Both the position numbers and the translations under genes were made by a program. This document shows positions 12,302-60,932 of a DNA stretch of 64,000 bases, piece by piece. Source of the stretch: Phyllobates terribilis (lineage: Eukaryota); NCBI RefSeq assembly GCF_046119375.1, contig NW_027362763.1, forward strand, positions 240,684,001 through 240,748,000. The letters run 5' to 3'. The notes under the pieces are model-generated. The model was not told where the DNA came from. It ran no database searches and saw only the letters and a list, made by a program, of their open reading frames with translations. Each line of letters starts with the position of its first letter. Position 1 is the first letter of the stretch.

Positions 12302-13319
<1,018 letters not shown>

Positions 13320-18548: not shown

Positions 18549-19109
18549 TTATGTTACTCTGCTGTCATTTGGTGGTGATGAGAAGTCTGGCCCAATCCAG
18601 CCCTTGTTCATTTTGATAAGGGTCAGCTTGTCAGCATTGTCAGTTGACAGGCGAGTGCGCTTATCAGTTATAATTCCCCCAGAGGCACTAAAAACACGCT
18701 CCGATAACACACTAGCGGCATGACAGGCCAGGACCTCCAAGGCGTACAGAGCGAGATCATTCCAAGTGTCCAGCTTGGATACCCAATAATTAAAAGGCAC
18801 AGAGGAATCACGGAGGATGCTGGTACGGTCGGCAAGGTACTCCCTCACCATCTTTTGAAACTTTCCACTCCTTGTGAGAGTACCCCGCGCCTCGGGGCCT
18901 GTAAGCTGGGCAGGTCTCAGAAAACTGTCCCAGAATGTTGACAGTGTTCCCCTGCCTCTGCTGGATTGGAGTTGCGTCTCTCTCGCCTGTATGCCTTGGT
19001 TGGTCGACGAACTGTGACCTCTGCTGCTAGCGTGTTCAGATGGAAAAAATTTTAACAGTTCTGCAGCAAGGGCCGTCTGGTACTTCCACATTTGTGTGGA
19101 CCTCTCCAC
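18549..19109 (-). pseudogene. hAT (ZBED-like) transposase C-terminal dimerisation domain, 5' truncated
   Basis: YWVSKLDTWNDLALYALEVLACHAASVLSERVFSASGGIITDKRTRLS fits the hAT dimerisation consensus (W...LA..A..L..PA.S..SERVFS). The upstream sequence stops at RCKENF near 19146. Confidence 0.9.
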
Positions 19110-20654
19110 CTCAGGAATAAGAGAGTGAAAGTTCTCCTTGCACCTTAATGCAAAAACAGCTGTAGTAATGTCAAAGTGGACTCACCATAGAAACAGATGG
19201 TAACCCGGTAGTAACCAACAGCCCATTTAACACAGTACACTGACAGACTTATCATGTTATTTAAAATTAAAAATAGTTCCAAAAATTATCCCTCTTTGTC
19301 ATTTGTGATCAGGCAGAGAGTTCTGTGCAGAACTGACTCAAACTGACAGCTTTTAGAGGTAATATCATATTTCTGTGGCTCAGATAAGTGATGAGCCATT
19401 TATTCCATTACACCCTTCACTTCCTCCCCACTAATATACTTGCTGGAGGTAATGGAGGCCAATTGTGGCCTGTATTTGGTAATACTGCTGCCCAAATGGC
19501 TAATGCTGGTGCTTCTGCTGGTGCTTCTGCTGGTGCTAGTGGTGCGCAGATTCTTAGTCGCGGTTACTATCTTTTTTTTATACTCCCTGTCCTTTGCCGT
19601 CGCCACTTTTTCTTTTCTCATACATTTTGCTCAACGCTATAATTAACTTTTGAGAATTTTTTCAACCCCAATCATTCAACATTTGCCAGAGAGTGTGCAA
19701 TAATAAATGCTAGGTAGTTAAGTACACATACAGAAATCAAAATGTGTTAGCAGGCCGCAATACAATTGTGGCATGTATGGTTGTTAAATTGGTTAAATGT
19801 CTACATTTTTTTTGTATTGTTTTTGAACAAAATTCAACTGCCTCTGAAAAATTATGTAAAAAGAAATGGTACTAAAATAGATGTACAAAACATTAAAAAA
19901 TAGTTTGCGACATGCACAGTTTGTGAGGTAGACAGTCACAGTTAAATGTAGCCTAAAGTGGAAGCTGCATTCCATCCCTAGGCTTTTATACAGTCTATGA
20001 TAGTCACTCCCAATTGGCTGTGTTATACCATGTGATGTGATAGCTGAAAGGCATTATGAGGAGGCCCATGTGGTCAAGCTTGAGGTCCTATCAGCCTTTT
20101 GTAATTGAGGCAATCTTCTCCGATGTGCAAAAAGTCATCAGGCTCTTTTTGGGGGTGATTCGTTCAAATTCAATCACATATTGTTTGAATTTGCTGGGAC
20201 CTGTAAATATTTACTTACTAAGTAATAAAGCCTAAGAGTCTCTTTAGGCATTGTTTTCATTCGTATGTTATAAGTCCAAAAAATGTCTCATAAACATTAA
20301 CAATTGTGGGCCTATGTGTCTTTGCTATGTATTTATTCAAATATAGTCAAAAGCTGCTTGATAAGAGGTAAGCTCAAAGAAGGAGGATGAAAGTTATATG
20401 GAGATAGAGGGGGGGAAGGAGATTTCTGAAGCAAGTACAGCTTCATAGAGTAAGCTATGATATTGTATACAGAAGAGGTCCAAAAGGTAAGGAAAGACTA
20501 AGAAATATGAGTGTCAACCCTTAAGTACGGAATACAGGGGCCAGTATAGAAATCAAACCATGGCCACCATATTTTCTTAAATTTGTCATATGGGTGTAAT
20601 TCCATGTGGGAGAATTCCTCCATTCTGGTAGGGTGACCTAACACATATAGAGTA

Positions 20655-22198
20655 CAGTGGTGTGAAAAAGTGTTTGCCCCCTTCCTGATTTCTTAGACAA
20701 AGATAACACAAGTAAACACAAAATGCAGTTTTTAAATGAAGGTCATTATTATCAAGGGAAAAAGAAATCCCCCCAAAAAGCAAAACAAAACCCATAAATT
20801 AACTGTGGTTTATCACATTTTTGGGAAGCGGATTTCAATTTCCCTAGCCACACACAGGCCTGATTACTGCCACACCTGTTCTCAATAAAGAAATCACTTA
20901 AATAGGACCTTCCTGATAAAGTGAAGTATACCTAAAAATCCTCAAAAGCTAGACATCATGCTGCAATCCAAGAAAGTTCAGGAACAAATGAGAAACAAAG
21001 TAATTGAGATCTATCAGTCTGGAAAAGGATATAAAGCCATTTCTAAAGCTTTGGGACTCCAGTGAACTACAATGAGAGCCATTATCCACAAATGGCAAAA
21101 ACATGGAACAGTGGAGAACCTTCTCAGGAGTGGCCGGCCGACCAAAATTACCCCCAAAATGCTGCGACGACACATCCAAGAGGTCACAAAAGACCCCACA
21201 ACAACATCCAAAGAATTGCAGGCCTCACTTGCCTCAGTTAAGGTCAGTGTTCATGACACCACCATAAGAAAGAGACTGGACAAAAATGGCATGCATGGCA
21301 GAGTTCCAAGATGAAAACCACTGTTGAGCAAAAAGAATATAAAGGATCGTCTCGGTTTTGCCAGAAAACATCTTGATGATCGTGAAGACTTTTGGGAGAA
21401 TGCCTTATAGACTGATGAGACAAAAGTTGAACTTTTTGGAAGGTGTATTTCCCATTACATCGAGCGTAGAAGTGACACAGCATTTCAGAAAAGGAACATC
21501 ATACAAACAGTAAGATATGGTGGTGGTAGTGTGATAGTTTGGGGTTGTTTTGCTGATACAGGACCTGGAAGACTTGCTGTGGTAAATGGAACCATAAATT
21601 CTGCTGTCTACCAAAAAATACTGAAGGAGAACGTCTGGCCATCTGTTCATAATCTTAAATTGAAGCGCACTTGGGTTATGCAGCAGGGCAATTATCCAAA
21701 ACATACCAGCGAGTCCACCTCTGAATGGCTTAGGAAAAACAAAATTAAGACTTTAAAGTAGCCTAGTCAGAGTCCTGACCTTAAACCGATTGAGATGCTG
21801 TGGCATGACCGTAACGAGGTGGTTCATGCTTGGAAACCCTCCAATGTGGCTGAATTACAACAATTTTGCAAAGATGAGTGGGCCAAAATTCCTCCAGAGC
21901 GTTGTAAAAGACTCATTGCCAGTTACCGCAAATGCTTGATTGGAGTTGTTGCTGCTAAGGGTGGCCCAACCAGTTATTAGGTTTAGGGGTGCAATCACTT
22001 TTTCACACATGCCCTGTAGGTTTGTATTTCTTTTTCCCTTAATAATAAAGACCTTCATTTAAAAACTGTATTTCGTGTTTACTTGTGTTATCTTTGTCTA
22101 ATATTTAAATTTGTTTTGTGATTTGAGACATTTAAGTGTGACAAATATGCAAAAGAATAAGAAATCAGGAAGGAGGCAAACACTTTTTCACACCACTG
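20655..22198 (+). mobile_element. Tc1 transposon (third family)
   Basis: TA-CAGTGGTGTGAAAAAGTGTTTGCC ... GGCAAACACTTTTTCACACCACTG-TA. The left TIR is internally deleted relative to the right. Confidence 0.93.
20958..21980 (+). pseudogene. Tc1 transposase pseudogene
   Basis: Contains HGTVENL.RSGRPTKITP, TDETKVELFG, VWGCFADTGPG and SPDLKPIEMLW. Several in-frame stops, including TGA at likely former CGA codons (CpG decay, inference). Confidence 0.9.
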
Positions 22199-33801: not shown

Positions 33802-34356
33802 GGGGCCCTGGCCGCTTCCTCGGCACCTGTTCAGTGACGCAGGCGCTGCTTGATTGCCAGCACTTCAGACATGGCCGCGCACAGTGTGCTGTGTCTGCTA
33901 GTAATGACACGGCAGGATCGATGGCACTGCACCTTTAATTGTGCTTGTGTGTCGCCCCTGCCGCGTCATTACTAGCAGACACAGCCGCACAGAGCGCGGC
34001 CATGTCTGGGGGAGTGCCGGCAATCAAACACCGTCGTCGGTCGTGCACAGATGGGGGGGAGCGGCCCGGACGCGACCGCAAGTGGGCCCCTCTGATGTTC
34101 CAGGGCCATGAATTCTGTGACACGCCGGGGGCCCTGCACTGCCCCATACCCGAGGAGCTGCTGGACAGGACACTGGACTGGGGACAGGTGAGTGAGGCTT
34201 CCCCAATCCCCATATTAAAAATATTTGTAATGGGTCTGTGTGAGTGCATGTATGTGAATGTCAGTGTGTATGACTGTGTATATATATTTGTCTGTTTTAT
34301 ATATGTTTTTAAGAATTTGTGTAAAAATGTGTGTATGTCTGTATGTGTTCATATCT

Positions 34357-34962
34357 GTGTACCATGTGTGCGTGCGTGTGTATGCGTACCGTGTGCGTGC
34401 ATGTGTCTGCGTACCGTGTGTGCGTGCATGTGTCTGCGTACCGTGTGTGCGTGCGCGTGTCTGTGTACCGTGTGTGCGTGCGCGTGTCTGCGTTCCGTGT
34501 GTGCGTGCATGTGTCTGCGTACCGTGTGTGCGTGCATGTGTCTGCGTACCGTGTGTGCGTGCATGTGTCTGCGTACCGTGTGTGCGTGCATGTGTCTGCG
34601 TACCGTGTGTGCGTGCATGTGTCTGCGTACCGTGTGTGCGTGCATGTGTCTGCGTACCGTGTGTGCGTGCATGTGTCTGCGTACCGTGTGTGCGTGTATG
34701 TGTCTTCGTACCGTGGTTGCGTGTATGTGTCTGCGTACCGTGTGTGCGTGCATGTGTCTGCGTACCGTGTGTGCGTGCATGTGTCTGCGTACCGTGTGTG
34801 CGTGCATGTGTCTGCGTACCATGTGTGCGTGCATGTGTCTGCGTACCGTGTGTGCGTGCATGTGTCTGCGTACCGTGTGTGCGTGCATGTGTCTGCGTAC
34901 CGTGTGTGCGTGCATGTGTCTGCGTACCGTGTGTGCGTGTATGTGTCTTCGTACCGTGGTTG
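34357..34962. repeat. 27-bp minisatellite (GTGTGTGCGTGCATGTGTCTGCGTACC), left part
   Basis: About 22 tandem copies; the array resumes at 39811 after the LTR element. Confidence 0.95.
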
Positions 34963-36148
34963 TGTAGCACCCTGAGGATTCGGCTGCTACAGGGGTATTG
35001 CACCTCAACCCAGAGGTGTGATATTCCACTCCCGGGTAAGGATGGAGTGTGGATCTGAGCTCGGTAGGCTGCATGCACTACACACATCCCATTTCCGAGG
35101 AGCAGACCGACGGTACTCCCACTTAGAAATGTGCAGGTACAACCGAGTCTGTTCCTGGCTGGAGTGGGAGGGGGGTGGAACATCCCAAGTAGTGTAGGGG
35201 CAGATAGGGGGAGCAGCCTGGGTAAAGATAGGAGCTCATTGGGTGCTGGTCACCTGAGCTCACACATAGAGGGTGTATATAAGGTGGGCACCAACTAAGA
35301 ACAGGGTCAGTTGCAGAGAGAAAGTCAGCGAGCGGAGGAGAAGAGAGACCCAGAGTGAGAGAGGAGAAAGAGAGACCCAGAGGGGGAAACAGAAGAAAAG
35401 GACTCCAAGAACCCAACTTAAATCCCCGGGTGAAGAGTCGGCACAGGGTACCGGAACCCAAGCTGGTGGGGGCAAAAACACACCCCAGCCAGAGACCGGA
35501 GGCCGTGGGCAGCGTTTGCCACGGCCACCCACCACATCCACCACGAAGGCACACCACGTGGAGGGTCAGGGAACCCAAGGCCAAGGGTCTCCCAACAGAA
35601 GGCCCGAGGGAGCTGGACCTGGGTGGATCTCTAGTGGGGACGGCCAGAGGAAAGGACAGAAGGAGAGCTCAGGGTCACGCTCCGGACTTATTTGGGGGTT
35701 GACTGGATCCAGAACCTGGTGGACGCAGCACGGTTCGGGAGGTCACTCGAAGCTGGAGTGACCGGAACATCAGCAGTGAGTAAACATCCTAAACTGCATA
35801 ACCCGACTCTGTCTCTGATTGCCGTCTACACTGCATCACCACAACCCCCATCCTCTGCACCTGATCCCCCTGAGGCTATACCCCACCCGTTGGGGGTTAT
35901 ATCATCACAAGCTGCACCTGCACCATCAGCCTCAGCGGACCCTGCTGCAGCGGCGGCCATAGTGACCGCAACACAACGGGTGGCGTAGTCGACATTAAGA
36001 ACTTAGTAACATCTGTAGGACTGCCACATACAACTCAGTTTGACACCCTGGGCACGGACCGGGTCACAGCCACTCGGAAGACTACAACCCCCATCTGATC
36101 CGGCTCCGGATATTCCCCCTAAAAGAATATGGCCCAGGGGGCGCGTCA
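34963..36148 (+). repeat. 5' LTR (1186 bp)
   Basis: Runs TGTAGCACCCTGAGG...GGGGCGCGTCA. TATATAA at 35276-35282; AGTAAA (possible polyA variant) at 35779-35784. Confidence 0.93.
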
Positions 36149-38171
36149 ACTTTGGCGTAGTCGGCAGGATTACGTGCCCACAACAACCGGGTACTGCGTG
36201 CCTGAAGAAAAGAATGAGTTTACCTCAAAGAGAAGTCTCCTGCCGGTTCCGGAGGGTCCCCGCCATCGGACCCCATCACCAGTCGATTCCCGCCGGTTGT
36301 CCGCCATTAACAGCGTTTTCCCGCCATCTGCAGAGTTTCCCGCCACTGGGAAGCGATTCCCGCCATTTCCAAAGGTTTCCCACCTTGGAAGAGCGGACGC
36401 CATTATGGGCGTGCCAGAGGGTGGCGAGAGGCCACCTCCCATCGTGGGCCAGGACCGACAATGGCGCCAAAAGTGGAAACCGCCCCCACCAACAGAGACT
36501 GTGATGCTAGAGGTGTCTGTCAGCGTGAAAGAACAGCCCCTGGAGCTGACAGTCACCAAGTGGCCTCGGGACCGCCCTCGAAGGGGGAGGAGACGAAAGG
36601 AGAGAACAAAGATGGGTGCCGCCTGGAGGAGTCTGGAGCGAGCGCACCCGGAGGCAAGAAGCCTGGAGAGGAGTAGCAGAGAAGCTCACCCGGAGATGGC
36701 CAGAGAGCAGAGCAGCACCGGCCCGCTGGCCAGGAGCCTGCTGGAAGAAGAGCAGAGCAGCACCGACCCGTTGGTCAGGAGCCTGCTGGAAACCACGACC
36801 CCACTAGGCCTAGTGGAGGTCCTCGCACAGCTCCCCCGAGACCGGGAGTGTGCACAGACTGCCCTGGAGGGCCTCGCACGGAGGATGGCCCGGGTACAGC
36901 GAGAGACATTGGCGGAGTGGAGCCGAGAGATGGCCCAGCAAACCAAGACCCGGAGCACGCCAGCCAAGATGAGGAGACAGACCGCCTCTGAGGATGGCGC
37001 GGGAGGACCCAAGGCCGGAGACGGCGCCGAGAAGGGAGCCGAACGCATGGAGGCAGGTAAAGGGGACGTCTATACCCCAAACCAGGACACCGCTTACCTG
37101 CCCCAGCTCCCCGTCGCAGAGCCCGAAAGTCCCCCTGCTGTGCCCGAAAACGCCATGTCACCGACGCAGACTAGGCCCCAACCGGAAGCCGCCGCCGCGA
37201 CCCCTGTGACGCCATGCGCACCGACCCCGAGCGTGGCAAAACAGGAAGTAACACCAGCCTGGTCGCAGGGCCTAGAATTCCCGGGCGTCGCATCACCAAC
37301 AGCGCCCCCTACCTCCGCGGAGCCTCCGGCCTGGCCGCAAGGCCAGGTAGCCCAGGGCGCCGCCGTCCTGACGGTGCCCTTCACCTTCCAGGTGCCCCAG
37401 GCCTGGCCGCAAGGCCTGGGCAACCCGGGCGCCACCACCACCGCGCCCGCACCCGTAAAACCAAGGGTGCCGCGTCTGGGAGAGGACTTGTTTGCCCAGC
37501 ACACGTGGCCGGACGGGCAGCCTTTCATCTGGCCCCAGAGATATTATGAACTGGAGCACCAGAGGAGAGTTGGGGCCATGTGTGCACCCCTGATTCCGGC
37601 TCCGAAGCCCGTGATAAGGATCTCGCCCCCGCTTGAAGAGACCCAATTTGAGTGGGACCCCACCGGAGAAGACCTAATGGGGTTCACTCAAGAAACCAGG
37701 GCAGCTGCAGCGGAGCGTGCTGAGTGCTGCCGACAGCAGCTCGAGGAGTATGCGAGGGAGCGGAGAGAGAGGCGGGTCCGGGAACAACAGGCCCAAATAA
37801 GGAGCGCCGAGCAGAAGAGCCGAACCAGGAGGGACCCCCGTGCAGCGCACAGTCCCCGCACCACCGGGACTGTAATTAAGTTCAACATGCAGCATGGGTG
37901 GGGCTTCATCAGAGACCACAACACCCCCGGCGACGTCTTTGTCACGCGCAGAGATGTGGAGTCCCATCTGCCGGAGGGGCACAGAGGTCGTGACCTTTAT
38001 ATCGGGGACGAGGTCACCTTTACCCGGCACAAGTGTGCCAAAGGACCTTACGCCCTCCATGTGCATCGCCTGACAGAGGAGGAGCTGCGATGTGAGGAGG
38101 AAGAGCAAGAGGATCCGGACGGGTCTGAAGCTGAGATCCCCAAAGAAGGAGCAGGAGGAAGACGTTGTTGA
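36129..38171 (+). CDS. 680-aa protein: Pro/Ala-rich low-complexity region, charged coiled-coil, C-terminal cold-shock domain, acidic tail
   Basis: Uninterrupted 2043-nt frame. Residues about 580-648 (nt 37866-38072) read GTVIKFNMQHGWGFIRDHNTPGDVFVT...DLYIGDEVTF...KGPYALHV, with RNP1-like GWGFI and RNP2-like DVFV motifs. The true start codon is uncertain. Confidence 0.8.
   Translation: MAQGARQLWRSRQDYVPTTTGYCVPEEKNEFTSKRSLLPVPEGPRHRTPSPVDSRRLSAINSVFPPSAEFPATGKRFPPFPKVSHLGRADAIMGVPEGGERPPPIVGQDRQWRQKWKPPPPTETVMLEVSVSVKEQPLELTVTKWPRDRPRRGRRRKERTKMGAAWRSLERAHPEARSLERSSREAHPEMAREQSSTGPLARSLLEEEQSSTDPLVRSLLETTTPLGLVEVLAQLPRDRECAQTALEGLARRMARVQRETLAEWSREMAQQTKTRSTPAKMRRQTASEDGAGGPKAGDGAEKGAERMEAGKGDVYTPNQDTAYLPQLPVAEPESPPAVPENAMSPTQTRPQPEAAAATPVTPCAPTPSVAKQEVTPAWSQGLEFPGVASPTAPPTSAEPPAWPQGQVAQGAAVLTVPFTFQVPQAWPQGLGNPGATTTAPAPVKPRVPRLGEDLFAQHTWPDGQPFIWPQRYYELEHQRRVGAMCAPLIPAPKPVIRISPPLEETQFEWDPTGEDLMGFTQETRAAAAERAECCRQQLEEYARERRERRVREQQAQIRSAEQKSRTRRDPRAAHSPRTTGTVIKFNMQHGWGFIRDHNTPGDVFVTRRDVESHLPEGHRGRDLYIGDEVTFTRHKCAKGPYALHVHRLTEEELRCEEEEQEDPDGSEAEIPKEGAGGRRC
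36153..36171 (+). promoter_or_regulatory. Primer-binding site, tRNA-Ser
   Basis: TGGCGTAGTCGGCAGGATT, 4 nt after the LTR, is the reverse complement of the vertebrate tRNA-Ser(AGA/TGA) 3' end ...AATCCTGCCGACTACG-CCA (recalled sequence). Confidence 0.9.
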
Positions 38172-38616
38172 GTACAGCGGAGTAGGTGCTGTAAATAGTT
38201 ACCCGATCGGGGTATAAAGAAACTGTTACTGCAAATATAGTCCCCGTTGGGACCAGCTGAGTGAACTGTTTACCAGTTTACCCTTAATCCCACAGGCTGA
38301 GGACTGTGAGCAGCCATTCCCTTTCCCTCCTTAACTGGCCGAGGACTGAGAGCGGCCATATCCCTTGTATATAGTTGCGCTTCCTAAAGCGCCCCCTACC
38401 GGTTTTATAGGAAAACCATTTTTCTAGAAAGACTGTCGCACTTTGCCCGGTCAACAGTTGCACAGTGACCGGAGGAGAAACAAGAGACGACGAGAATGTT
38501 TTATCTGAAAAGTTTTATATATATATAATGTTTTATATGTTTTATATGTTTATGGAAAAAATTTTGTATGTTTTTGGTGTTATGTCTTACAGCCCGAGGA
38601 CGTGCTGTGATTTACC

Positions 38617-38625
38617 AGGGGGGAA
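38617..38625 (+). promoter_or_regulatory. Polypurine tract
   Basis: AGGGGGGAA directly abuts the 3' LTR TGTAGC. Confidence 0.85.
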
Positions 38626-39810
38626 TGTAGCACCCTGAGGATTCGGCTGCTACAGGGGTATTGCACCTCAACCCAGAGGTGTGATATTCCACTCCCGGGT
38701 AAGGATGGAGTGTGGATCTGAGCTCGGTAGGCTGCATGCACTACACACATCCCATTTCCGAGGAGCAGACCGACGGTACTCCCACTTAGAAATGTGCAGG
38801 TACAACCGAGTCTGTTCCTGGCTGGAGTGGGAGGGGGGTGGAACATCCCAAGTAGTGTAGGGGCAGATAGGGGGAGCAGCCTGGGTAAAGATAGGAGCTC
38901 ATTGGGTGCTGGTCACCTGAGCTCACACATAGAGGGTGTATATAAGGTGGGCACCAACTAAGAACAGGGTCAGTTGCAGAGAGAAAGTCAGCGAGCGGAG
39001 GAGAAGAGAGACCCAGAGTGAGAGAGGAGAAAGAGAGACCCAGAGGGGGAAACAGAAGAAAAGGACTCCAAGAACCCAACTTAAATCCCCGGGTGAAGAG
39101 TCGGCACAGGGTACCGGAACCCAAGCTGGTGGGGGCAAAAACACACCCCAGCCAGAGACCGGAGGCCGTGGGCAGCGTTTGCCACGGCCACCCACCACAT
39201 CCACCACGAAGGCACACCACGTGGAGGGTCAGGGAACCCAAGGCCAAGGGTCTCCCAACAGAAGGCCCGAGGGAGCTGGACCTGGGTGGATCTCTAGTGG
39301 GGACGGCCAGAGGAAAGGACAGAAGGAGAGCTCAGGGTCACGCTCCGGACTTATTTGGGGGTTGGCTGGATCCAGAACCTGGTGGACGCAGCACGGTTCG
39401 GGAGGTCACTCGAAGCTGGAGTGACCGGAACATCAGCAGTGAGTAAACATCCTAAACTGCATAACCCGACTCTGTCTCTGATTGCCGTCTACACTGCATC
39501 ACCACAACCCCCATCCTCTGCACCTGATCCCCCTGAGGCTATACCCCACCCGTTGGGGGTTATATCATCACAAGCTGCACCTGCACCATCAGCCTCAGCG
39601 GACCCTGCTGCAGCGGCGGCCATAGTGACCGCAACACAACGGGTGGCGTAGTCGACATTAAGAACTTAGTAACATCTGTAGGACTGCCACATACAACTCA
39701 GTTTGACACCCTGGGCACGGACCGGGTCACAGCCACTCGGAAGACTACAACCCCCATCTGATCCGGCTCCGGATATTCCCCCTAAAAGAATATGGCCCAG
39801 GGGGCGCGCA
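38626..39810 (+). repeat. 3' LTR (1185 bp)
   Basis: Copy of 34963-36148 at offset 3663. By eye only an A/G change (35702 vs 39365) and a 1-nt indel near the end were seen. Confidence 0.93.
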
Positions 39811-39990
39811 GTTGCGTGTATGTGTCTGCGTACCGTGTGTGCGTGCATGTGTCTGCGTACCGTGTGTGCGTGCATGTGTCTGCGTACTGTGTGTGCGTGC
39901 GCATGTCTGCGTACTGTGTGTGCGTGCGCATGTCTGCGTACCATGTGTGCATGTCTGCATACCGTGTGTGTGTGCGCATGTCTGCATGTG
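39811..39990. repeat. 27-bp minisatellite, right part
   Basis: Continues GTTGCGTGTATGTGTCTGCGTACCG exactly as in the uninterrupted variant unit at 34716-34740. Confidence 0.9.
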
Positions 39991-46186: not shown

Positions 46187-48581
46187 CATAGAATCATAGA
46201 ATCATAGAATCATAGAATGTAGAGTTGGAAGGGACCTCCTGGGTCATCTGGTCCAACCCCCTGCTCAAAGCAGGATTCACTAAATCATCTCAAACAGATG
46301 TCTGTCCAGCCTCTGTTTGAAGACGTCCATTGAAGGGGAACTCACCACCTCTCGTGGCAGCCTGTTCCACTCATTGATCACCCTCACTGTCAAAAAGTTT
46401 TTTCTAATATCTAATCTGTGTCTCCTCCCATTTAGTTTCATCCCATTGCTTCTAGTCTTTCCTTGTGCAAATGAGAATAAAGATGATCCTTCTACAATGT
46501 GACAGCCCTTGACATATTTGTAGACAGCTATTAAGTCTCCTCTCAGTCTTCTTTTTTGCAAGCTAAACATTCCCAAATCCTGCAACCGTTCCTCATAGGA
46601 CATGGTTTGCAGACCAGTCACCATTCTGGTCGCTCTTCTCTGAACTTGCTCCAGTTTGTCTATGTCTTTTTTAAAATGTGGTGCCCAAAACTGTACACAG
46701 TATTCCAGATGAGGTCTGACCAAAGAGGAGTAAAGTCCGATAATGACTTCACGTGATCTAGACTGTATGCTTCTGTTAATACATCCCAGAATTGTATTTG
46801 CCTTTTTTGCTGCTGCATCACACTGTTGACTCATGTTCAGTCTATGATCTATTAGTATACCTAAGTCTTTTTCACATGTACTGTTGCTTAGCTCTATTCC
46901 TCCCATTCTGTATATGCTTTTTTCATTTTTATTGCCCAGATGTAGTACTTTGCATTTTTCCCTGTTAAAAACCATTCTGTTGGTTGCTGCCCACTGCTCC
47001 AGTTTATTTAGGTCTTTTTGAATCCTCTCTCTCTCTTCTCTAGTATTAGCTATCCCTCCTAGCTTTGTGTCATCAGCAAATTTAATCAGTTTACCCTCAA
47101 TTCCTTCATCTAAATCATTGATAAAGATGTTGAACAATACAGGTCCCAGGATGGAGCCCTGTGGTACCCCACTTGAGACATTCATCCAGCTGGATGTGAA
47201 GCCATTTACAACCACCCTTTGAGTCCGATCACTAAGCCAGTTATGAATCCACCTAACAGTTGCCTAGTCCATTGCATACTTGGTCATTTTTTCAATAAGG
47301 ATGGTGTGAGATACTTTGTCAAATGCTTTGCTGAAGTAAAGATATACTATATCTACAGCATTTCCCTGATCCACCCAGTCAGTGATTCTGTCATAGAAGG
47401 AAATTAAGTTAGTCTGACATGACTTGTTAGTTACAAACCCATGCTGACTCTGGTTAATCACTTCATTCTTATCCATGTACTTACCTACATGTTGTTTAAT
47501 AATTTGTTCAAAGATCTTTCCTGGTATAGAAGTCAGACTCACCGGCCTATAGTTCCCTGGGTCCACCTTCTTCCCCTTTTTGAAGATAGGAACAACATTT
47601 GCTCTTCTCCAGTCTTCTGGGACTTCTCCTGTTCTCCAAGAATTTTCAAAGATTATGGAGAGTGGTTCTAAAATTTCTTCTACGATCTCCTTCAGTACTC
47701 TGGGGTGTAATTCATCTGGACCTGGAGACTTGAACTCATTTATGTTAGCTAAATATTCCCTCACAATCTTTCTGTTTACAGATAACTTGGATTCTTCTAT
47801 TCCTTTAAAACGACAGTGAAGATCAGTTGATGATACATTTTCTTTCTGAGAGAAAACAGATGCAAAATAGGAATTAAAAAGTTCGGCCTTCTCAACATCC
47901 TCTCTTACCATTTCTCCATTTTCATCCTGTAAAAATCCTATAGCATCTTTGACTTTTCTTTTACTTTTGACATACCCCCAAAATCCTTTTTTGTTGCTTT
48001 TGACATCTCTTGCAAGCCTTAATTCATTGTCAGCTTTAGCTAACCTGATACGTGCCCTACAGGATCTGCAGACTGCATTATAATCTTCTTTAGATATGCC
48101 TCCCTCTTTCCATTTAATAAACATTTCTTTCTTTCTTTTTAGCATGTGTTTAAGTTCTGTGTTCATCCATCCTGGTTTCCTTAAATGCTTCCCATTCTTC
48201 CTACTTTTCGGGATTGTTAACGATTGTGCTTTGAGAATCTCAGTTTTAAAAATTTCCCATCCTTCCTGGACATTTTTGTCCTTAAGGACATCCAGCCATT
48301 GGATCCCTCCTATTCTCTTTCTGAGTCTCTTAAAATCTGCCTTTCTAAAATCTAACCTTGAAGTTTGAGTCTTCACATGTCTTCCTCCTCTAGTTATCGA
48401 AAATTCTATAATAGCATGATCGCTGCCTCCTAGGGTCCCAGCCACCTTTACCTCCTCAACCATTTCATCCCTGTTTATAAGGATTAGATCCAAAGTAGCA
48501 GATCCCCTTGTTTTCTCCCCTACCTTTTGGAAGATAAAGTTGTCAGCAAGAGAGGATAAGAATTTGCTTGACCTGTTAGTT
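46187..48581 (-). mobile_element. 5'-truncated CR1 LINE
   Basis: (ATTCTATG)n 3' tail at 46187-46217 on the minus strand. ORF2 pieces 47264-48493 and 46280-47215 are in one frame, split by a CAG-to-TAG stop. RT motifs KFADD and QGSILGP present. Confidence 0.95.
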
Positions 48582-49332
48582 AGGTGTTATGGAAGCAACC
48601 TGGGCTTCCATAACACCTCAGCAGTGCCACAGGCTGATCGTCTCAATGCCACGCCGCATTAATGCAGTAATTGATGCAAAAGGAGCCCCGACCAAGTATT
48701 GAGTGCATTTACTGAACATACATTTCAGTAGGCCAACATTTCAGATTTTAAAAACATTTTTCAAGCTGTTGTTATAAAGTATTCTAATTTACTGAGATAA
48801 TGACTTTTGTGTTTTCATTGGCTGTAAGGCATAATCATCAACATTAACAGAAATAAACACTTGAAATAGATCACTCTGTCTGTAATGACTCTATATAATT
48901 GTTATGATCTGCTACAGGGACTAAGGAAAGACAGGAGAACTGTCCCTACAATAGAACTAAACTAGATCCCTACGATGTAACGGGGAACCTGATCCTGCGA
49001 TCAGACCCGCTAAAGTCCTCGGCTAGTCTGAACGAAGACCTATAGATGTGAGGGAGGGATCCCTACAAGAACTAGGGACTGGGATAAGTTGGACACCTCG
49101 TAGCAGAAATAGTAGCAGTCAAAGACAAACACACAACAAAAAGCATAGAGGTCAGAAGACCTAGCAAAACTAACAGAGAATGGCAACAGAGCACCAAGCT
49201 AGCTCAAGAGTAGTAAATACAATGAAGTCCAGCAAGACCAGGAGGGCGGAGCCGGATTAAATAGGCAAAAATGCACGTGACCAGCAAACTAAAAAAAACC
49301 TAACAGGAGAGTTCTAACAGTACCCCCCTCTT

Positions 49333-51726
49333 CTAAGAGGATCCTCCGGATCCCCTAGGCCCAGGCTTACCAGGAAACCTCCTGTGAAACGCTCTGACAA
49401 GTCTGGAAGCAGAAACATCATCCGCCCTCACCCATGAGTTATCCTCAGGTCCGAAACCCTTCGAAGCGACGAGATACTGCAAACTCCCTCTATACCGTCT
49501 AGAATTTAGGATGCGGGAAATTTCATATTCTTCGTCCTCCACCACCGGAGGAACATTGGCAGAGGCGTCACCATCAGACACATCAGCTTTTTTCAACAGA
49601 GAAACATGAAACACCGGGTTAATCTTCCAGGACGTAGGAACCTCCAACCTAACAGCAGATTGGTTAACTATCTGAAGCACCTTAAAGGGCCCTACGAACT
49701 TGGGACCCAATTTTTTAGAAGGAATCCTCAATCGCAGATTCTTAGAGGACAACCAAACCATGTCACCAACAGCAAACAAAACCTCTTGCCGTTTCCTATC
49801 AAAGTACCTCTTAGATTTTTTGTTAGCCTCCTGAAGATTACCACGCACATCCGTCCAAACTCTCTCCAAATCACCGGAAAAACTCTCCTCCTCAGGCACA
49901 GCCGAAACCAATTTTGAGAATGACCCAAAAGACGGATGTCTCCCAGAACAACAAAAAAAAGGCGAACACCCAGCAGAAGAGGATGTATGGTTGTTAAGAG
50001 CAAATTCAGCAAGTGGCAGAAACTCAGACCACCCCTCTTGATTGTCTGCCACAAAACAACGCAAGAACTGCTCAACATCCTGGTTCTTCCTTTCTGTCTG
50101 GCCATTAGACTCAGGATGATATCCAGATGAAAACGACAAATGAACTCCCAACCTGTCACAAAAGGCACGCCAAAAACGAGCCACGAACTGAGGTCCCCTA
50201 TCAGAAACAATGTCAGTAGGAGCACCATGCAGTCTGACAATTTCCTTGACAAAGGCCTTAGCGAGTGTCTTAGCGCAAGGCAGTTTGATGAAGGGAACCA
50301 AGTGACACATCTTGCTAAAACGGTCCACGACCACCCAGATGACCGTGAAACCTTCAGAGGGGGGAAGGTCAGTAATAAAGTCCATAGCCAGATGTGTCCA
50401 AGGTGCACTAGGAACCTCCAGAGGGCAAAGCAACCCCGCAGCAGGAGCATGCCAAGACTTGGATCTAGCCCACACAGTACATTGGCGCACCCACTTAATG
50501 ACTTCCTTCTGCCATCCAGGCCACCAAAAACTGCGACCCACAAGTCTCTTGGTCTCAGAAATTCCTGGATGACCTGCCAACCGAGACTCATGACATTCAA
50601 CAAACAAATCTCTCCTAAAGGTCCTAGGCACAAACAACCTCCCATGGGGAGTGTTAGATGGGGCACTCTCCTGAGCTTTAAGAATCTCATCCTCCAAAAC
50701 GGAGTCCAAAGCAGCAATCACAACACCTTCTTGTAAAATGCTCTCCTCTTCCTCCTCAACACCGACCATGGGAGAAAAGCTGCGAGACAAAGCATCCGCT
50801 TTAACATTCTTGGTACCCGGGATGTAAGTAACGGAAAAATTAAACCGCGAGAAAAAAAGTGCCCACCTAGCCTGACGGGCATTCAAGCGCTTGGCAGCAT
50901 CAAGATAGATCAGATTTTTATGATCAGTGAAAACCTGAATGGGAAATTCAGCACCTTCCAAGAGGTGACACCAGTGTTCAAATGCGAGTTTAATTGCCAG
51001 CAATTCCCGATTACCAATATCGTAATTAAGTTCAGTCTCAGAAAATTTTTTTGAAAAAAAGGCACAGGGATGTACTCCATCCTTGTTTTCCTGAGACAAC
51101 ACCGCACCGACCCCCACTGAAGAAGCATCAACCTCAACCAAAAATGGCTTAGTCACATCAGGCTGCATAAGGATGGGAGCAGAGGTGAACCTCTCCTTTA
51201 GAAACACAAAAGCTTCAATGGCCTCAGAAGTCCACTGAACCGCATTAGCACCTTTCCTGGTGAGATCGGTCAGCGGTTTGACAATAATAGAAATTTTTTT
51301 TATGAATTTTCTGTAATAATTGGCGAAACCCAAAAACCTCTGTATCGATTTCAAACCAATAGGTCTAGGCCATTCCTGCACAGCTTGAACTTTAACCGGG
51401 TCCATCTCAAAACCTTCACTGGAGATAATGTAGCCCAAAAAACTAATTCTCTGTACAGCGAACTCACATTTCTCCAGCTTAGCAAAAAGCGAATTGTCCA
51501 TTAATAACTGTAATACCTCACGTACGCTCCTCCAATGAGACTCCAGATCAGGCGAATAAATCAGAATGTCATCCAAATACACAACCACATTTTTGCCGAT
51601 TAAAGGTCTAAGGATGTCATTAATAAGATTCTGAAAAAAATGCTGGAGCATTGGTAAGACCAAAAGGCATAACCAGATTCTCAAAATGACCCACAGGAGT
51701 GTTAAAAGCAGTCTTCCATTCATCAC
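49333..51726 (-). CDS. pol: Pol remainder: RT, RNase H, integrase, chromodomain
   Basis: VYLDDILIYS; VEVDASSVGVGAVL; integrase core HLAMDFIT...SDRGPQF...NGQTERKNQ; chromodomain EYEISRILNSRR...NSWV. Disconnected from the upstream frame by one indel. Confidence 0.9.
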   Translation of the reverse strand: MMNGRLLLTLLWVILRIWLCLLVLPMLQHFFQNLINDILRPLIGKNVVVYLDDILIYSPDLESHWRSVREVLQLLMDNSLFAKLEKCEFAVQRISFLGYIISSEGFEMDPVKVQAVQEWPRPIGLKSIQRFLGFANYYRKFIKKISIIVKPLTDLTRKGANAVQWTSEAIEAFVFLKERFTSAPILMQPDVTKPFLVEVDASSVGVGAVLSQENKDGVHPCAFFSKKFSETELNYDIGNRELLAIKLAFEHWCHLLEGAEFPIQVFTDHKNLIYLDAAKRLNARQARWALFFSRFNFSVTYIPGTKNVKADALSRSFSPMVGVEEEEESILQEGVVIAALDSVLEDEILKAQESAPSNTPHGRLFVPRTFRRDLFVECHESRLAGHPGISETKRLVGRSFWWPGWQKEVIKWVRQCTVWARSKSWHAPAAGLLCPLEVPSAPWTHLAMDFITDLPPSEGFTVIWVVVDRFSKMCHLVPFIKLPCAKTLAKAFVKEIVRLHGAPTDIVSDRGPQFVARFWRAFCDRLGVHLSFSSGYHPESNGQTERKNQDVEQFLRCFVADNQEGWSEFLPLAEFALNNHTSSSAGCSPFFCCSGRHPSFGSFSKLVSAVPEEESFSGDLERVWTDVRGNLQEANKKSKRYFDRKRQEVLFAVGDMVWLSSKNLRLRIPSKKLGPKFVGPFKVLQIVNQSAVRLEVPTSWKINPVFHVSLLKKADVSDGDASANVPPVVEDEEYEISRILNSRRYRGSLQYLVASKGFGPEDNSWVRADDVSASRLVRAFHRRFPGKPGPRGSGGSS

Positions 51727-53404
51727 CCTCCTTCATGCGCAACAAATTGTATGCCCCCCGGAGATCAATTTTAGAGAACCACTTGGCCCCCACTAACTGG
51801 TTAAATAAATCAGGAATCAATGGCAGTGGGTAAGGATTGCGTACAGTAATTTTATTAATCTCACGAAAGTCCAGACAAGGACGTAAACCACCATCTTTTT
51901 TTTTTACAAAAAAAAATCCAACAGCCACAGGAGACTTGGAAGGCCTAATGTGACCGGCGGCCAAGCTTGTATGTATGTATTCCTCCAAAGCCTTTCTCTC
52001 AGGAATAGTAAGATTAAATAAACGACTTTTAGGAAGAGTAGCTCCAGGGACAAATTCAATGGTACAATCATAGTCTCTATGGGGAGGCAAAATTTGTGAC
52101 TCCTCCTCAGAAAAAACTCTCCAAAAATCCTGAATAGGTACAGGCAATTCCCCTTTATCCACAGCAGCAATACGTCCGTTACAACACTTGTCATAACACT
52201 TAGGGCTCCAGGACTTAATTTCATTGATAGACCAATCCAGTACAGGATTGTGCAATTTTAACCAGGGTAACCCCAATATTACTGGAGAAGGCAAATTATC
52301 CAATACCACCAAATCCAAATTTTCTTGGTGAATACCATTGATAGTGAGGGGAAATTCACAGACCTTATGAGTAACACTCTTCAAGGGAGAGCCATCAACA
52401 GAAACCACAGCAATAGGGGATGACAAAGTTTTAGGTTCTAATCTAAGTTTTTCCAAGAATCCCCCATCAATCACATTCAGAGTAGAACCACAATCCACAA
52501 ATACCCGAAATTCAATTAATTCATCCTGAGCAGCAGTAGTGGCAGATAGGAATACTCCCTTAGAATTTAAACAGGCAATACGGGCATAACGGACCATTTT
52601 TTTTTCTTTCTTCAAACGAAGCACACAGTTCTTAATAAAATGACCAGAATTTCCGCAATAGAAGCACAAGCCTTCAGAAAGCCTGCAATCTTTTTCCTGA
52701 GAGCGGGGTGGCATCGCCCCAATCTCCATCGGCTCTCCATTGTCAGCACAGACCCTCTCAAGACTCGGAGCTGACATAGCAGAGGATTTGCTCTCATTAA
52801 CCCTTGCACGCAGTCTCCTGTCCACCCGTATAGCTAATTGCATAGCCTCCTGCAAGTTTCCAGGTGTGGGATAAGCAATCAGTAAATCCTTAACCCTTTC
52901 ACCTAGCCCTGCAAGAAACAAGCTTTTCAAAACTGAATCGTTCCACCCCACCTGGGCAGACCACCGACGGAAGTGAGAACAATATTTTTCCACATTACCT
53001 GATCCCTGCCTCAAACGTCTCAATTCAGACTCAGCAGATGAGACACGATCAGGATCATCATACAACAAACCCAAAGCAGAAAAAAAACTATCCACTGATC
53101 TAAAGCATGGATCACTAGGTTGGAGAGAGAAGGCCCATCCCTGAGGATCTTTGCGCAAAAGTGACATTATGAACCCTATGCGCTGTGATTCATCACCAGA
53201 GGATCCGGGTCTCAAACGAAAATACAATAAACAAGCATTTTTAAAAGAAAAAAAATCTTGTTGTTCGCCAAAAAATAAATCAGGCAGACGTACCTTTGGT
53301 TCCACAAAATGTGCTCCAGAACAGCTACTCACGTGTTGTTGGAGCTTGGCCACCTCCAGAGAGAGTCCCTGCAAGCTTTGAGCCAAATCTTGAACCGAGA
53401 CCAT
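51620..53404 (-). CDS. gag: Gag (CCHC knuckle), protease and RT N-terminus
   Basis: CFYCGNSGHFIKNC zinc knuckle; FVDCGS protease motif; RT start LRPCLDFREIN...FSKIDLRGAYN...FGLTNAPA. The frame ends just after a 7-nt homopolymer. Confidence 0.9.
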   Translation of the reverse strand: MVSVQDLAQSLQGLSLEVAKLQQHVSSCSGAHFVEPKVRLPDLFFGEQQDFFSFKNACLLYFRLRPGSSGDESQRIGFIMSLLRKDPQGWAFSLQPSDPCFRSVDSFFSALGLLYDDPDRVSSAESELRRLRQGSGNVEKYCSHFRRWSAQVGWNDSVLKSLFLAGLGERVKDLLIAYPTPGNLQEAMQLAIRVDRRLRARVNESKSSAMSAPSLERVCADNGEPMEIGAMPPRSQEKDCRLSEGLCFYCGNSGHFIKNCVLRLKKEKKMVRYARIACLNSKGVFLSATTAAQDELIEFRVFVDCGSTLNVIDGGFLEKLRLEPKTLSSPIAVVSVDGSPLKSVTHKVCEFPLTINGIHQENLDLVVLDNLPSPVILGLPWLKLHNPVLDWSINEIKSWSPKCYDKCCNGRIAAVDKGELPVPIQDFWRVFSEEESQILPPHRDYDCTIEFVPGATLPKSRLFNLTIPERKALEEYIHTSLAAGHIRPSKSPVAVGFFFVKKKDGGLRPCLDFREINKITVRNPYPLPLIPDLFNQLVGAKWFSKIDLRGAYNLLRMKEGDEWKTAFNTPVGHFENLVMPFGLTNAPAFFSESY

Positions 53405-54020
53405 GATGGAAAACTGGAGGTCTTTCCTTAGAGAAAATTTTTATTTTTTTTTTTCTTTTAGGGCTGGACTTACTGTTATGATCTGCTACAGGGACTAAGG
53501 AAAGACAGGAGAACTGTCCCTACAATAGAACTAAACTAGATCCCTACGATGTAACGGGGAACCTGATCCTGCGATCAGACCCGCTAAAGTCCTCGGCTAG
53601 TCTGAACGAAGACCTATAGATGTGAGGGAGGGATCCCTACAAGAACTAGGGACTGGGATAAGTTGGACACCTCCTAGCAGAAATAGTAGCAGTCAAAGAC
53701 AAACACACAACAAAAAGCATAGAGGTCAGAAGACCTAGCAAAACTAACAGAGAACGGCAACAGAGCACCAAGCTAGCTCAAGAGTAGTAAATACAATGAA
53801 GTCCAGCAAGACCAGGAGGGCAGAGCCGGATTAAATAGGCAAAAATGGTCATGTGAACAGCAAACTAAAAAAAACTAACAGGAGAGTTCTAACAATAATA
53901 TATGAGTCACTTTTTGTATTGAAGAACTGAAATAAATTAACTTTTTGATGATATTCTAATTTAGTGAGATGCACCTGTATACACACATAAAATGTACAGA
54001 AAAAAAGCCCAATAATTTAA

Positions 54021-58020: not shown

Positions 58021-60810
58021 CTAGATCATCTCAGACAGATGTCTGTCCAGCCTCTGTTTGAAGACGTCCATTGAAGGGGAACTCACCACCTCTCGTGGCA
58101 GCCTGTTCCACTCATTAATCACCCTAACTGTCAAAAAGTTTTTTCTAATATCTAATCTGTGTCTCCTCCCATTTAGTTTCATCCCATTGCTTCTAGTCTT
58201 TCCTTGTGCAAATGAGAATAAAGATGATCCTTCTACAATGTGACAGCCCTTGATATATTTGTAGACAGCTATAAAGTCTCCTCTCAGTCTTCTTTTTTGC
58301 AAGCTAAACATTCCCAAATCCTGCAACCGTTCCTCATAGGACATGGTTTGCAGACCAGTCACCATTCTGGTCGTTCTTCTCTGAACTTGCTCCAGTTTGT
58401 CTATGTCTTTTTTAAAATGTGGTGCCCAAAACTGTACACAGTATTCCAGATGAGGTCTGACCAAAGAGGAGTAAAGACCGATAATGACTTCACGTGATCT
58501 AGACTGTATGCTTCTGTTAATACATCCCAGAATTGTATTTGCCTTTTTTGCTGCTGCATCACACTGTTAACTCATGTTCAGTCTATGATCTATTAGTATA
58601 CCTAAGTCTTTTTCACATGTACTGTTGCTTAGCTCTATTCCTTCCATTCTGTATATGCTTTTTACATTTTTATTGCCCAGATGTAGTACTTTGCATTTTT
58701 CCCTGTTAAAAACCATTCTGTTGGTTGCTGCCCACTGCTCCAGTTTATTTAGGTCTTTTTGAATCCTCTCTCTCTCTTCTCTAGTATTAGCTATCCCTCC
58801 TAGCTTTGTGTCATCAGCAAATTTAATCAGTTTACCCTCAATTCCTTCATCTAAATCATTGATAAAGATGTTGAACAATACAGGTCCCAGGACGGAGCCC
58901 TGTGGTACCCCACTTGAGACATTCATCCAGCTGGATGTGAAGCCATTTACAACCACCCTTTGAGTCCGATCACTAAGCCAGTTATGAATCCACCTAACAG
59001 TTGCCTGGTCCATTGCATACTTGGTCATTTTTTCAATAAGGATGATGTGAGATACTTTGTCAAATGCTTTGCTGAAGTCAAGATATACTATATCTACAGC
59101 ATTTCCCTGATCCACCCAGTCAGTGATTCTGTCATAGAAGGAAATTAAGTTAGTCTGACATGACTTGTTAGTTACAAACCCATGCTGACTCTGGTTAATC
59201 ACTTCATTCTTATCCATGTACTTACATACATGTTGTTTAATAATTTGTTCAAAGATCTTTCCTGGTATAGAAGTCAGACTCACCGGCCTATAGTTCCCTG
59301 GGTCCACCTTCTTCCCCTTTTTGAAGATAGGAACAACATTTGCTCTTCTCCAGTCTTCTGGGACTTCTCCTGTTCTCCAAGAATTTTCAAAGATTATGGA
59401 GAGTGGTTCTAAAATTTCTTCTACGATCTCCTTCAGTACTCTGGGGTGTAATTCATCTGGACCTGGAGACTTGAACTCATTTATGTTGGCTAAATATTCC
59501 CTCACAATCTTTCTGTTTACAGATAACCTGGATTCTTCTTTTCCTTTAATAGGACAGTGAAGATCAGTTGATGTTACATTTTCTTTCTGAGAGAAAACAG
59601 ATGCAAAATAGGAATTAAAAAGTTCGGCCTTCTCAACATCCTCTCTTACCATTTCTCCATTTTCATCCTGTAAAAATCCTATAGCATCTTTGACTTTTCT
59701 TTTACTTTTGACATACCCCCAAAATCCTTTTTTATTGCTTTTGACATCTCTTGCAAGCCTTAATTCATTGTCAGCTTTAGCTAACCTGATACGTGCCCTA
59801 CAGGATCTGCAGACTGCATTATAATCTTCTTTAGATATGCCTCCCTCTTTCCATTTAATAAACATTTCTTTCTTTCTTTTTAGCATGTGTTTAAGTTCTG
59901 TGTTCATCCATCCTGGTTTCCTTAAATGCTTCCCATTCTTCCTACTTTTCGGGATTGTTAACGATTGTGCTTTGAGAATCTCATTTTTAAAAATTTCCCA
60001 TCCTTCCTGGACATTTTTGTCCTTAAGGACATCCAGCCATTGGATCCCTCCTATTCTCTTTCTGAGTCTCTTAAAATCTGCCTTTCTAAAATCTAACCTT
60101 GAAGTTTGAGTCCTCACATGTCTTCCTCCTCTAGTTATCCAAAATTCTATAATAGCATGATCGCTGCCTCCTAGGGTCCCAGCCACCTTTACCTCCTCAA
60201 CCATTTCCTCCCTGTTTATAAGGATTAGATCCAAAGTAGCAGATCCCCTTGTTTTCTCCCCTACCTTTTGGAAGATAAAGTTGTCAGCAAGAGAGGATAA
60301 GAATTTGCTTGACCTGTTAGTTTTACTTGAGAGAGATTCCCAACAAATGTCTGGATAGTTGAAATCTCCCATGACCACTACGTCATATTTTTTGGAGAAC
60401 TTGGTCATTTGATACATAAAGAGTTCATCCATATCTTCAGCTTGCCCAGGTGGCCTGTAGTAAATGCCTACAATGGTGTCCTTTCCATTGTTCTCTCCTT
60501 GTATTCTTACCCAAACAGTTTCCACAGAACTCCCAGTCTCTGAAGCTTCAATCTCTGTGCAGATATACGCTTTTCTAACATACAATGCGACACCTCCTCC
60601 TCGTTTATCAAGTCTGTTTCTTGCAAATAAGTTGTATCCTTTTAGCCTTTTATTCCAATCATGTGTATCGTCCCACCAAGTTTCAGTGATTCCAATGACA
60701 TCATATTTCTTTTCCTGCATTAGTAGTTCCAATTCTCCTTGTTTGTTGCCCATGCTTTGTGCATTTGTATAAAAACATTTTAGTTTGTGATTGGTTTCTC
60801 TTCCTCCCAT
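58021..60810 (-). pseudogene. CR1 ORF2 (APE endonuclease plus RT) with one nonsense codon
   Basis: YTNAQS, GITETWW, MGDFNYPD and SDH endonuclease motifs; KFADD RT motif. TAA at 58567-58569 where the sister copy has CAA. Confidence 0.92.
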
Positions 60811-60932
60811 ATTTTTATTATTTAAATTGTTTTGTCTTTGTTCTTCTTTTCCACTTCCAGTAGCAGAGATCTCAATAGTATTTGTCAGCTGTATGGCTTT
60901 TTCTGGCCTTTTGCTTCCCTTCCCACATTGTT

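Follow-up and report, generated by a model that had tools for sequence, protein, structure and literature searches.

We analyzed a 64,000-nucleotide stretch of the Phyllobates terribilis genome (assembly GCF_046119375.1, contig NW_027362763.1, positions 240,684,001 to 240,748,000 of the forward strand), in which a long terminal repeat (LTR) element at 34963-39810 carries, as its sole gene, a single open reading frame (ORF) that encodes a cold-shock domain (CSD). The whole stretch is called the window here, positions are counted from its first letter, and the features of the element are collected in Table 1. The two LTRs are near-identical, with one substitution and, near the 3' end, a single-base indel between them, and the 27-bp tandem repeat that hosts the insertion flanks it on both sides (34350-34962 and 39811-39990). 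The 5' LTR contains a TATA-like box at 35276 and, at 35779, an AGTAAA that we take to be a poly(A)-like signal. The genome has a tRNA-Ser(TGA) gene (locus L187) that the primer-binding site (PBS) matches, and an identical PBS is found in an abundant gag-pol element that is treated below as the candidate helper. The window element is a young non-autonomous Ty3/Gypsy-type LTR element.

An earlier sequence-only reading of this DNA had described a 680-codon frame between the LTRs that lacked CCHC, protease, reverse transcriptase (RT), RNase H, and integrase motifs. The frame is indeed open for 680 codons, and Pfam detects none of these domains in it, nor Gag; PF00313, the CSD family, is the only Pfam match. 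The placement between the LTRs needed one correction, as the ATG sits 20 nt inside the 5' LTR, while the rest of the frame does run through the PBS and leader into the interior. This ATG is the first downstream of the TATA box, and an ATG is present at the same position in 11 of 15 copies of the CSD lineage versus 0 of 15 gag-pol copies. Codons ∼1 to 90 overlap cis-acting LTR and leader sequence. An ORF that begins within the 5' LTR and crosses the PBS, in an identical frame, was observed both in the family of the window element (family 1; window 36129-36170) and in another CSD-bearing family (family 3; L184, 2122-4320, minus strand), whose LTRs look unrelated.

Most of the encoded protein is predicted to be disordered, with 441 of 680 residues below a pLDDT of 50 in an AlphaFold2 model built from an 18-row alignment. 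An Arg/Glu-rich stretch resembling the predicted helix at amino acids (aa) 521 to 568 also precedes the CSD in a second, older family (family 2). The CSD is followed by a short acidic tail only, and a Y-box C-terminal domain was not recognized there. No Gag or capsid fold was found in the ORF by Pfam, by AlphaFold2 and Foldseek (PDB and BFVD), by BLAST against the helper Gag, or by a PDB search, with model confidence low outside the CSD. A PDB sequence search with aa 1 to 574 gave no match at an E value of ≤1, and the ESM Atlas returned no usable match for aa 190 to 300 and leads at 0.84 only for aa 500 to 680.

CSDs are nucleic acid chaperones. The one encoded here had been placed in the C-terminal part of the protein, where PF00313 indeed matches aa 579 to 646 with an E value of 2.3e−8 (34.2 bits against a cutoff of 27). 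The AlphaFold2 model of this region is a five-stranded barrel (pLDDT, 84 to 93), and all 42 Foldseek matches listed for the model are CSD proteins, with TM scores by target length of 0.90 for CspA and 0.78 for the YBX1 CSD. Both a sequence match and a predicted CSD fold were therefore obtained in a check for a CSD or OB fold that had been set beforehand. The identity to the YBX1 CSD, judged earlier at about 23 of 69 positions, is 22 of 69 when counted by hand on the alignment (∼32%). The W of KWFN and the H of VFVH are replaced, as had been read, by K (W65) and T (H87); the F74 and F85 equivalents are kept, and Y72 is W. The main aromatic contacts of the YB-1 CSD are W65, F74, F85, and H87 (PMC7498358, excerpt). 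The barrel glycines and F85 are invariant in every row of both family alignments. The loop after DVFV has the Y-box length that had been claimed for it (by hand count, 21 residues, versus 20 for YBX1 and 16 for the bacterial protein), and the whole domain is encoded without introns in the single open frame.

The CSD is probably of Y-box origin, judging from profile ranking. A family profile, which takes in one protein of uncertain genomic context, ranked eight Y-box sequences first (E ∼ 1e−12), followed by bacterial Csp (1e−10) and Lin28 (3e−5), and a related protein of the toad Bufo bufo, used alone, aligned without gaps to YBX2 and also ranked Y-box first. The earlier label "Y-box/Lin28-like" therefore keeps its first half, Y-box leading in both the profile and toad searches, and loses its second, as Lin28 falls far below and there is no CCHC. 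With YBX1 and YBX2 (FRGY2), the window protein has in common the CSD fold, the long loop after the second RNP motif, and the best profile match; it differs in being only ∼32% identical, in the replacement of W65 and H87, and in lying intronless within a mobile element. Membership in Lin28, defined by a CSD plus two CCHC knuckles, was rejected on the missing CCHC match and a score far below that of Y-box. Membership in the Y-box proteins (YBX1 to YBX3, FRGY2), which we take to require a near-invariant CSD and a Y-box C-terminal domain in an intron-containing gene, was rejected on the 32% identity, the short acidic tail, and the lack of introns; the domain is at most derived from that family.

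Table 1. Features of the CSD-bearing LTR element, in window coordinates
Feature	Position	Strand	Remarks
Left target-site duplication, GTTG	34959..34962	+	Inside the 27-bp tandem repeat hosting the insertion
5' LTR	34963..36148	+	1186 nt, TG...CA
Single ORF	36129..38171	+	680 aa; start ATG within 5' LTR
Primer-binding site	36153..36170	+	Complementary to tRNA-Ser 3' end: 15 genome-encoded nt plus CCA
Post-PBS leader	36171..36350	+	Homologous to helper pre-gag leader; doubles as codons ∼15 to 74
Small predicted helical segment	36768..36950	+	aa 214 to 274; pLDDT ∼50 to 78; homologue search negative
Long charged helix	37689..37832	+	aa 521 to 568; immediately N-terminal of CSD (prediction)
Cold-shock domain	37863..38066	+	aa 579 to 646; Pfam PF00313; five-stranded OB barrel predicted
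3' untranslated region motif TGTANATAGTT, copy 1	38190..38200	+	Holds Pumilio-type UGUANAUA element
3' untranslated region motif TGTANATAGTT, copy 2	38366..38376	+	
Polypurine tract	38612..38625	+	Abuts 3' LTR; G-run type as in helper
3' LTR	38626..39810	+	1185 nt
Right target-site duplication, GTTG	39811..39814	+	

The CSD is carried in large numbers. A degenerate codon pattern for nine CSD residues matched the 10.57-Gb host genome 20,748 times versus 0 times for the reversed control, a count that includes duplicated scaffolds and misses diverged families. Many synonymous variants were present among the listed matches, and an exact 29-mer from the window CSD occurs 1,223 times. If copies are full-length (∼4.85 kb each), the CSD elements would total roughly 100 Mb, or ∼1% of the genome. 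The 30 best DNA matches, which represent ∼17 independent insertions and form a biased sample in being chosen by similarity, included 27 with a fully open frame, 2 with a stop, and 1 that was not parsed. LTR pairs of the best matches are 0 to 4 substitutions apart. Target-site duplications (TSDs) in the 14 independent insertions with both flanks read are perfect 4-bp repeats in 11, a 4-bp repeat with a mismatch in 1, and 5-bp repeats in 2 (hand count). All 150 of the scored CSD matches, a similarity-biased set, are identical over 93 aa, and ∼118 of them lie in frames of at least 678 codons (hand count). CSD elements also occur in tandem LTR-interior-LTR-interior-LTR arrays (L018/L019, L044 to L046, and L097), with a period of ∼3.65 kb in family 1.

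Because youth alone keeps frames open, diverged subfamilies were compared for selection. Differences were counted by hand with the Nei-Gojobori method, uncorrected, over aa 579 to 650 (∼50 synonymous and ∼166 non-synonymous sites) between the window and 7 of the 12 CSD-bearing copies, non-independent pairs, each with the window sequence as one member. Synonymous/non-synonymous differences were ∼29/10, 30/18, 28/8, 28/14, 24/5, 13/4, and 19/4, so that 26 to 61% of synonymous sites differ between subfamilies versus 2 to 11% of non-synonymous sites, and the ratio of the two proportions (pN/pS) is 0.06 to 0.18 in all seven comparisons. The CSD is under strong purifying selection. In six full-length copies aligned to the window, indels in the remainder of the ORF leave its frame intact. 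The earlier proposal that a retrotransposon family captured a CSD and keeps it intact is upheld by these ratios far below 1 and by the CSD match and fold. A processed pseudogene of a CSD gene was also considered and is ruled out by the same pN/pS values of 0.06 to 0.18 and by the anatomy of LTR, PBS, and polypurine tract (PPT).

The junction of LTR end and PBS occurs 48,057 times in the genome. The first 30 consecutive junctions on C1 comprised 16 of the CSD lineage, among which 11 had an intact CSD, 3 were internally deleted, and 2 were interrupted or truncated, and 14 of gag-pol type, namely 13 gag-pol elements and 1 gag-type element interrupted by a LINE; ten extra loci hand-picked for variant junctions are excluded from this 16:14 ratio. 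The gag-pol elements (e.g., L158 and L140) have a PNMA-like Gag, with a CCHC knuckle that gives a weak Pfam match below the cutoff, and domains in the order protease-RT-RNase H-integrase within an interior of ∼5.9 kb. Their LTR pairs are 97.6 to 99.9% identical where found (18 of 21 copies), and a PPT pattern of their type matches the genome 34,624 times. They share with the window element the PBS, the PPT, the leader, young LTR pairs, and, in several copies, a 3' untranslated region (UTR) motif, and they differ from it in having Gag and the full set of pol domains but no CSD. Alignment is confined to the last ∼300 nt of the LTR (∼73% identical), the PBS, at most ∼200 nt of leader, and the PPT; over most of its length (U3), the helper LTR gives no alignment with the window element. 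Because the LTR end, PBS, leader, and PPT are shared, we infer helper dependence, and the abundant gag-pol element is the likely helper of the CSD element. The alternative that the CSD is an extra ORF of an autonomous element was rejected, as 0 of 21 RT-bearing copies had a CSD match. A complex prediction for helper Gag residues 20 to 215 with ORF aa 450 to 662 scored 0.04 and is not used as evidence.

The post-PBS leader is a candidate packaging signal. Folding of the leader RNA gave a z score of −1.6, which is not significant, and an Rfam scan gave no match at the gathering threshold. Repeated TTCCCGCCA motifs occur in the shared leader (window 36270-36400; helper leaders of L140 and L158) and are themselves a candidate packaging or dimerization signal.

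At least three LTR families in the genome carry a CSD. Family 2 is older, has a variant PBS and ∼50% identity in the CSD region, is LTR flanked in several of the 15 loci examined, and includes many copies with stops. In family 3 (L182 and L184), the LTR looks different, the PBS is the same, the TSD is 4 bp long, and the CSD is the sole significant similarity of a 732-aa ORF to the window protein (33% over 84 aa); the LTRs of families 1 and 3 were judged unrelated by eye. Related proteins are annotated in Ranitomeya variabilis, R. imitator, Anomaloglossus baeobatrachus, and Bufo bufo, and the last, annotated "Y-box-binding protein 2-A-like," is 48% identical to the family 3 CSD. These poison frog and toad relatives are putatively of LTR origin. 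Profile searches for wider relatives, each covering up to 8,000 candidates, gave 1 and 4 proteins, all already known, and at this scope absence outside frogs is weak evidence. Most of the 150 listed protein matches hit in several stretches and look multi-CSD; 10 were examined.

A more diverged CSD, representing a fourth type, is encoded in a frame of 261 codons (L176, 1354-2139; L183) and is the sequence that best matches the toad protein; a search of the surrounding 7.5 kb for direct repeats was negative, and the sequence may be either an aged copy or a gene that has been domesticated. The annotated protein P0003 (L105/L061) fuses a family 2 CSD segment to an R3H-domain host protein, and because the segment lies within an LTR-flanked element, this is a gene-model chimera or an exonization.

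CSD-less derivatives have multiplied as well. Three CSD-deleting junctions recur 62, 31, and 25 times. In the first, 46 sites are spread across all of C1 to C12; the second and third are found mainly on contigs after C12, frequently with several on one contig, and may reflect duplication.

In the 3' UTR, the 11-nt motif TGTANATAGTT is present twice in the window element and in most family 1 copies, once or twice in many family 2 loci, and as a single copy after the pol stop in 8 of 21 helper copies. UGUANAUA is a Pumilio element (PMC5855632, excerpt), and its presence hints at post-transcriptional control in germ cells. The bare 8-mer UGUANAUA is, however, common in the window, with 24 matches versus ∼10 expected. 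A U-rich stretch of the 3' UTR (window 38500-38560), ∼900 nt from the presumed poly(A) signal, holds several UUUUAU motifs, which we take to be CPE-like. Families 1 and 2 also have in common a pyrimidine-rich stretch with a terminal CAG before the PPT (window 38560-38625; L104, ∼5860-5915) and, in their LTRs, a donor-like GTGAGT overlapping the AGTAAA signal (window 35776-35784). Splicing from this donor to the pre-PPT CAG would take out the entire interior, and no such joint was among those listed. Contigs from 4 of the 9 runs listed span all 30 bins, but the kind of these runs is uncertain; none of 15 listed splice joints was a clean GT-AG, and these data give no evidence either way on expression.

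The element is very probably a non-autonomous "satellite" of the abundant Ty3/Gypsy retrotransposon. It would keep only the cis signals (LTR ends, tRNA-Ser PBS, leader, and PPT) and rely on the Gag and Pol of the helper. The CSD would have replaced gag-pol as cargo, most likely after a long-ago capture from a Y-box mRNA, and would now be embedded in a largely disordered protein partly recruited from LTR and leader sequence. Selection on a gene in a non-autonomous element implies that the product benefits the producing copy, either directly or by acting in the same cell. Y-box proteins coat stored oocyte mRNA. We tentatively favor an RNA-binding accessory protein that promotes its own transcript in the germline. 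The possibility raised by the sequence-only reading, that the CSD might mask or protect the RNA of its own element in the germline, is plausible, and the Pumilio-type motif kept in the 3' UTR lends it indirect support. The LTR transcript would be translated from the ATG in U5, and the CSD and flanking basic helix would bind RNA, preferentially the transcript of the element itself; binding would stabilize, store, or unfold that RNA in germ cells, which would then be packaged and reverse transcribed more often by helper particles. The CSD would thus be a non-essential fitness booster, such that deletion derivatives could spread for a while and long-lived lineages would keep the domain. The finding that YB-1 supports HIV RNA metabolism and particle production (PMC6040738, excerpt) counts for this mechanism.

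Several observations weigh against this proposal or its Y-box component. The multiplication of CSD-deleted derivatives indicates that there is no strict need for the CSD in cis. Replacement affects two of the four main YB-1 aromatic contacts, W65 and H87, and the affinity or specificity of binding may accordingly be low or altered. The Pumilio-type motif is absent from the family 3 3' UTR. With the window protein, a single-sequence PDB search gave a bacterial Csp a marginally better rank than YBX1, and the top Foldseek match was bacterial CspA. A fuller version of the same proposal is possible, though we regard it as doubtful: these satellite retroelements would constitute a long-lasting class in hyloid frogs, with a repurposed Y-box domain as their sole gene. 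Having moved between LTR backbones, this domain would hijack the masking and storage of oocyte mRNA, in concert with host Pumilio sites, and so gain packaging by helper Gypsy particles; it would be a Gag-free, host-derived replication enhancer amounting to ∼1% of a giant genome.

The spread of CSD-less derivatives is what one would expect of a protein that acts in trans, and a Y-box mimic or decoy could blunt host silencing or RNA decay (piRNA, HUSH, or YBX-dependent masking) in the germ cell that expresses it, to the benefit of helper and deleted derivatives too. A binding surface altered at W65 and H87 on a conserved fold and the joint abundance of helper and satellite (34,624 PPT-pattern and 20,748 CSD-pattern matches) fit such counter-defense. 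Cheaters should nevertheless erode a pure public good, yet pN/pS is ∼0.1 and the CSD is present in at least three families, so that some cis or same-cell advantage is needed; we consider this explanation unlikely.

A substitute nucleocapsid was among the roles suggested by the sequence-only reading; as a substitute or auxiliary nucleocapsid, the protein would be co-packaged in helper particles and chaperone tRNA annealing and strand transfer. The ORF occupies the gag position and reads through the PBS, a basic helix is predicted to precede the CSD, and CSDs in general act as nucleic acid chaperones. The suggestion has nonetheless lost ground and appears decidedly improbable, as neither a capsid fold nor Gag homology was found in the protein, a CCHC knuckle is already present in the helper Gag (weak match), and CSD-less derivatives multiplied all the same. 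Slightly less likely again is a nuclear role, with transcription or export of the element enhanced by CSD binding to its nascent transcript or to single-stranded or Y-box DNA of its LTR. YB-1 binds single-stranded DNA via the same surface (PMC7498358, excerpt), and the window protein has Arg-rich, NLS-like stretches (by eye), but the CSD is common to families whose LTRs look unrelated by eye, and no conserved LTR site was identified.

A gag-only non-autonomous family, Bik-1, is required in zebrafish development (PMC12067270, excerpt), and a similar host-beneficial or addictive cargo, needed for frog development, could maintain the ORF. Host-level selection would hardly be able to hold thousands of copies open, however, and the synonymous divergence lies between mobile lineages, with older family 2 copies decaying with stops, which makes this explanation very unlikely. 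The weakest reading, that the CSD protein is functionless and the frame matters only for escape from nonsense-mediated decay or ribosome transit, or that the copies are merely young, draws on the 0 to 4 LTR mismatches and on the overlap of codons ∼1 to 90 with cis-acting sequence but is largely refuted for the CSD and scarcely credible, given 26 to 61% synonymous versus 2 to 11% non-synonymous differences between subfamilies, a CSD that is the only region shared with family 3, and invariant barrel glycines and F85.

Non-autonomous LTR elements normally carry no gene or gag alone. BHIKHARI (Bik-1/2) of zebrafish and 1A11, Xretpos, and λ-olt 2-1 of Xenopus likewise consist of LTRs around one ORF of ∼600 to 700 aa and lack pol. 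The Bik ORF is, however, a Gag with a capsid fold and that of 1A11 is Gag-like, whereas the window ORF has a host-type CSD and no Gag fold or homology was found in it. Gag-only elements number tens to hundreds of copies compared to ∼20,000 CSD elements, and here a candidate helper is present in the same genome. Bik was recently mobile and is presumed to require a partner (PMC12067270, excerpt); the Xenopus elements are also described as lacking pol (PMC4585706, excerpt). Capture of host genes is familiar from transduced oncogenes, the Cassandra 5S TRIMs, and extra ORFs in plant LTR elements. The window element resembles these systems in having host sequence between LTRs and a probable helper-dependent mobilization and differs from them in that its entire cargo is one captured protein domain, which is subject to strong purifying selection and found repeatedly, in several LTR families and frog lineages.

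No description of such a family had been known to the earlier reading, and a full-text literature search, with Repbase, Dfam, supplements, and subscription papers outside its scope, found none; those papers and databases and the transposable element libraries in supplements could hold the family, with the domain probably unnoticed. Available excerpts of three frog transposable element or genome papers (10.1101/2023.11.06.565769, PMC6278860, and PMC12822217) contain no relevant use of the word "cold." What sets the CSD elements apart is a captured host RNA-binding domain as sole cargo, selected across several families and present in ∼20,000 copies. Such cargo points to an unrecognized step in retrotransposon replication or defense evasion, probably in germline RNA handling, and the elements bear on the large size of these frog genomes. 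For annotation, some frog "Y-box-binding protein-like" or "CSD-containing" models are probably transposon copies, and one is fused to a host gene.

The window also contains a chromodomain-bearing Ty3/Gypsy element (49333-53440, minus strand) with gag-pol split over two frames; an RT probe from it is ∼40% identical to the helper's, which marks it as a distinct lineage. From their motifs, we take the frames at 46280-48586 and 58021-61934 (minus strand) to be LINE-type RT frames, those at 5970-6719, 12756-13100, and 21411-21761 to be Tc1/mariner-type transposase fragments, and 18549-19181 to be a hAT-type fragment.

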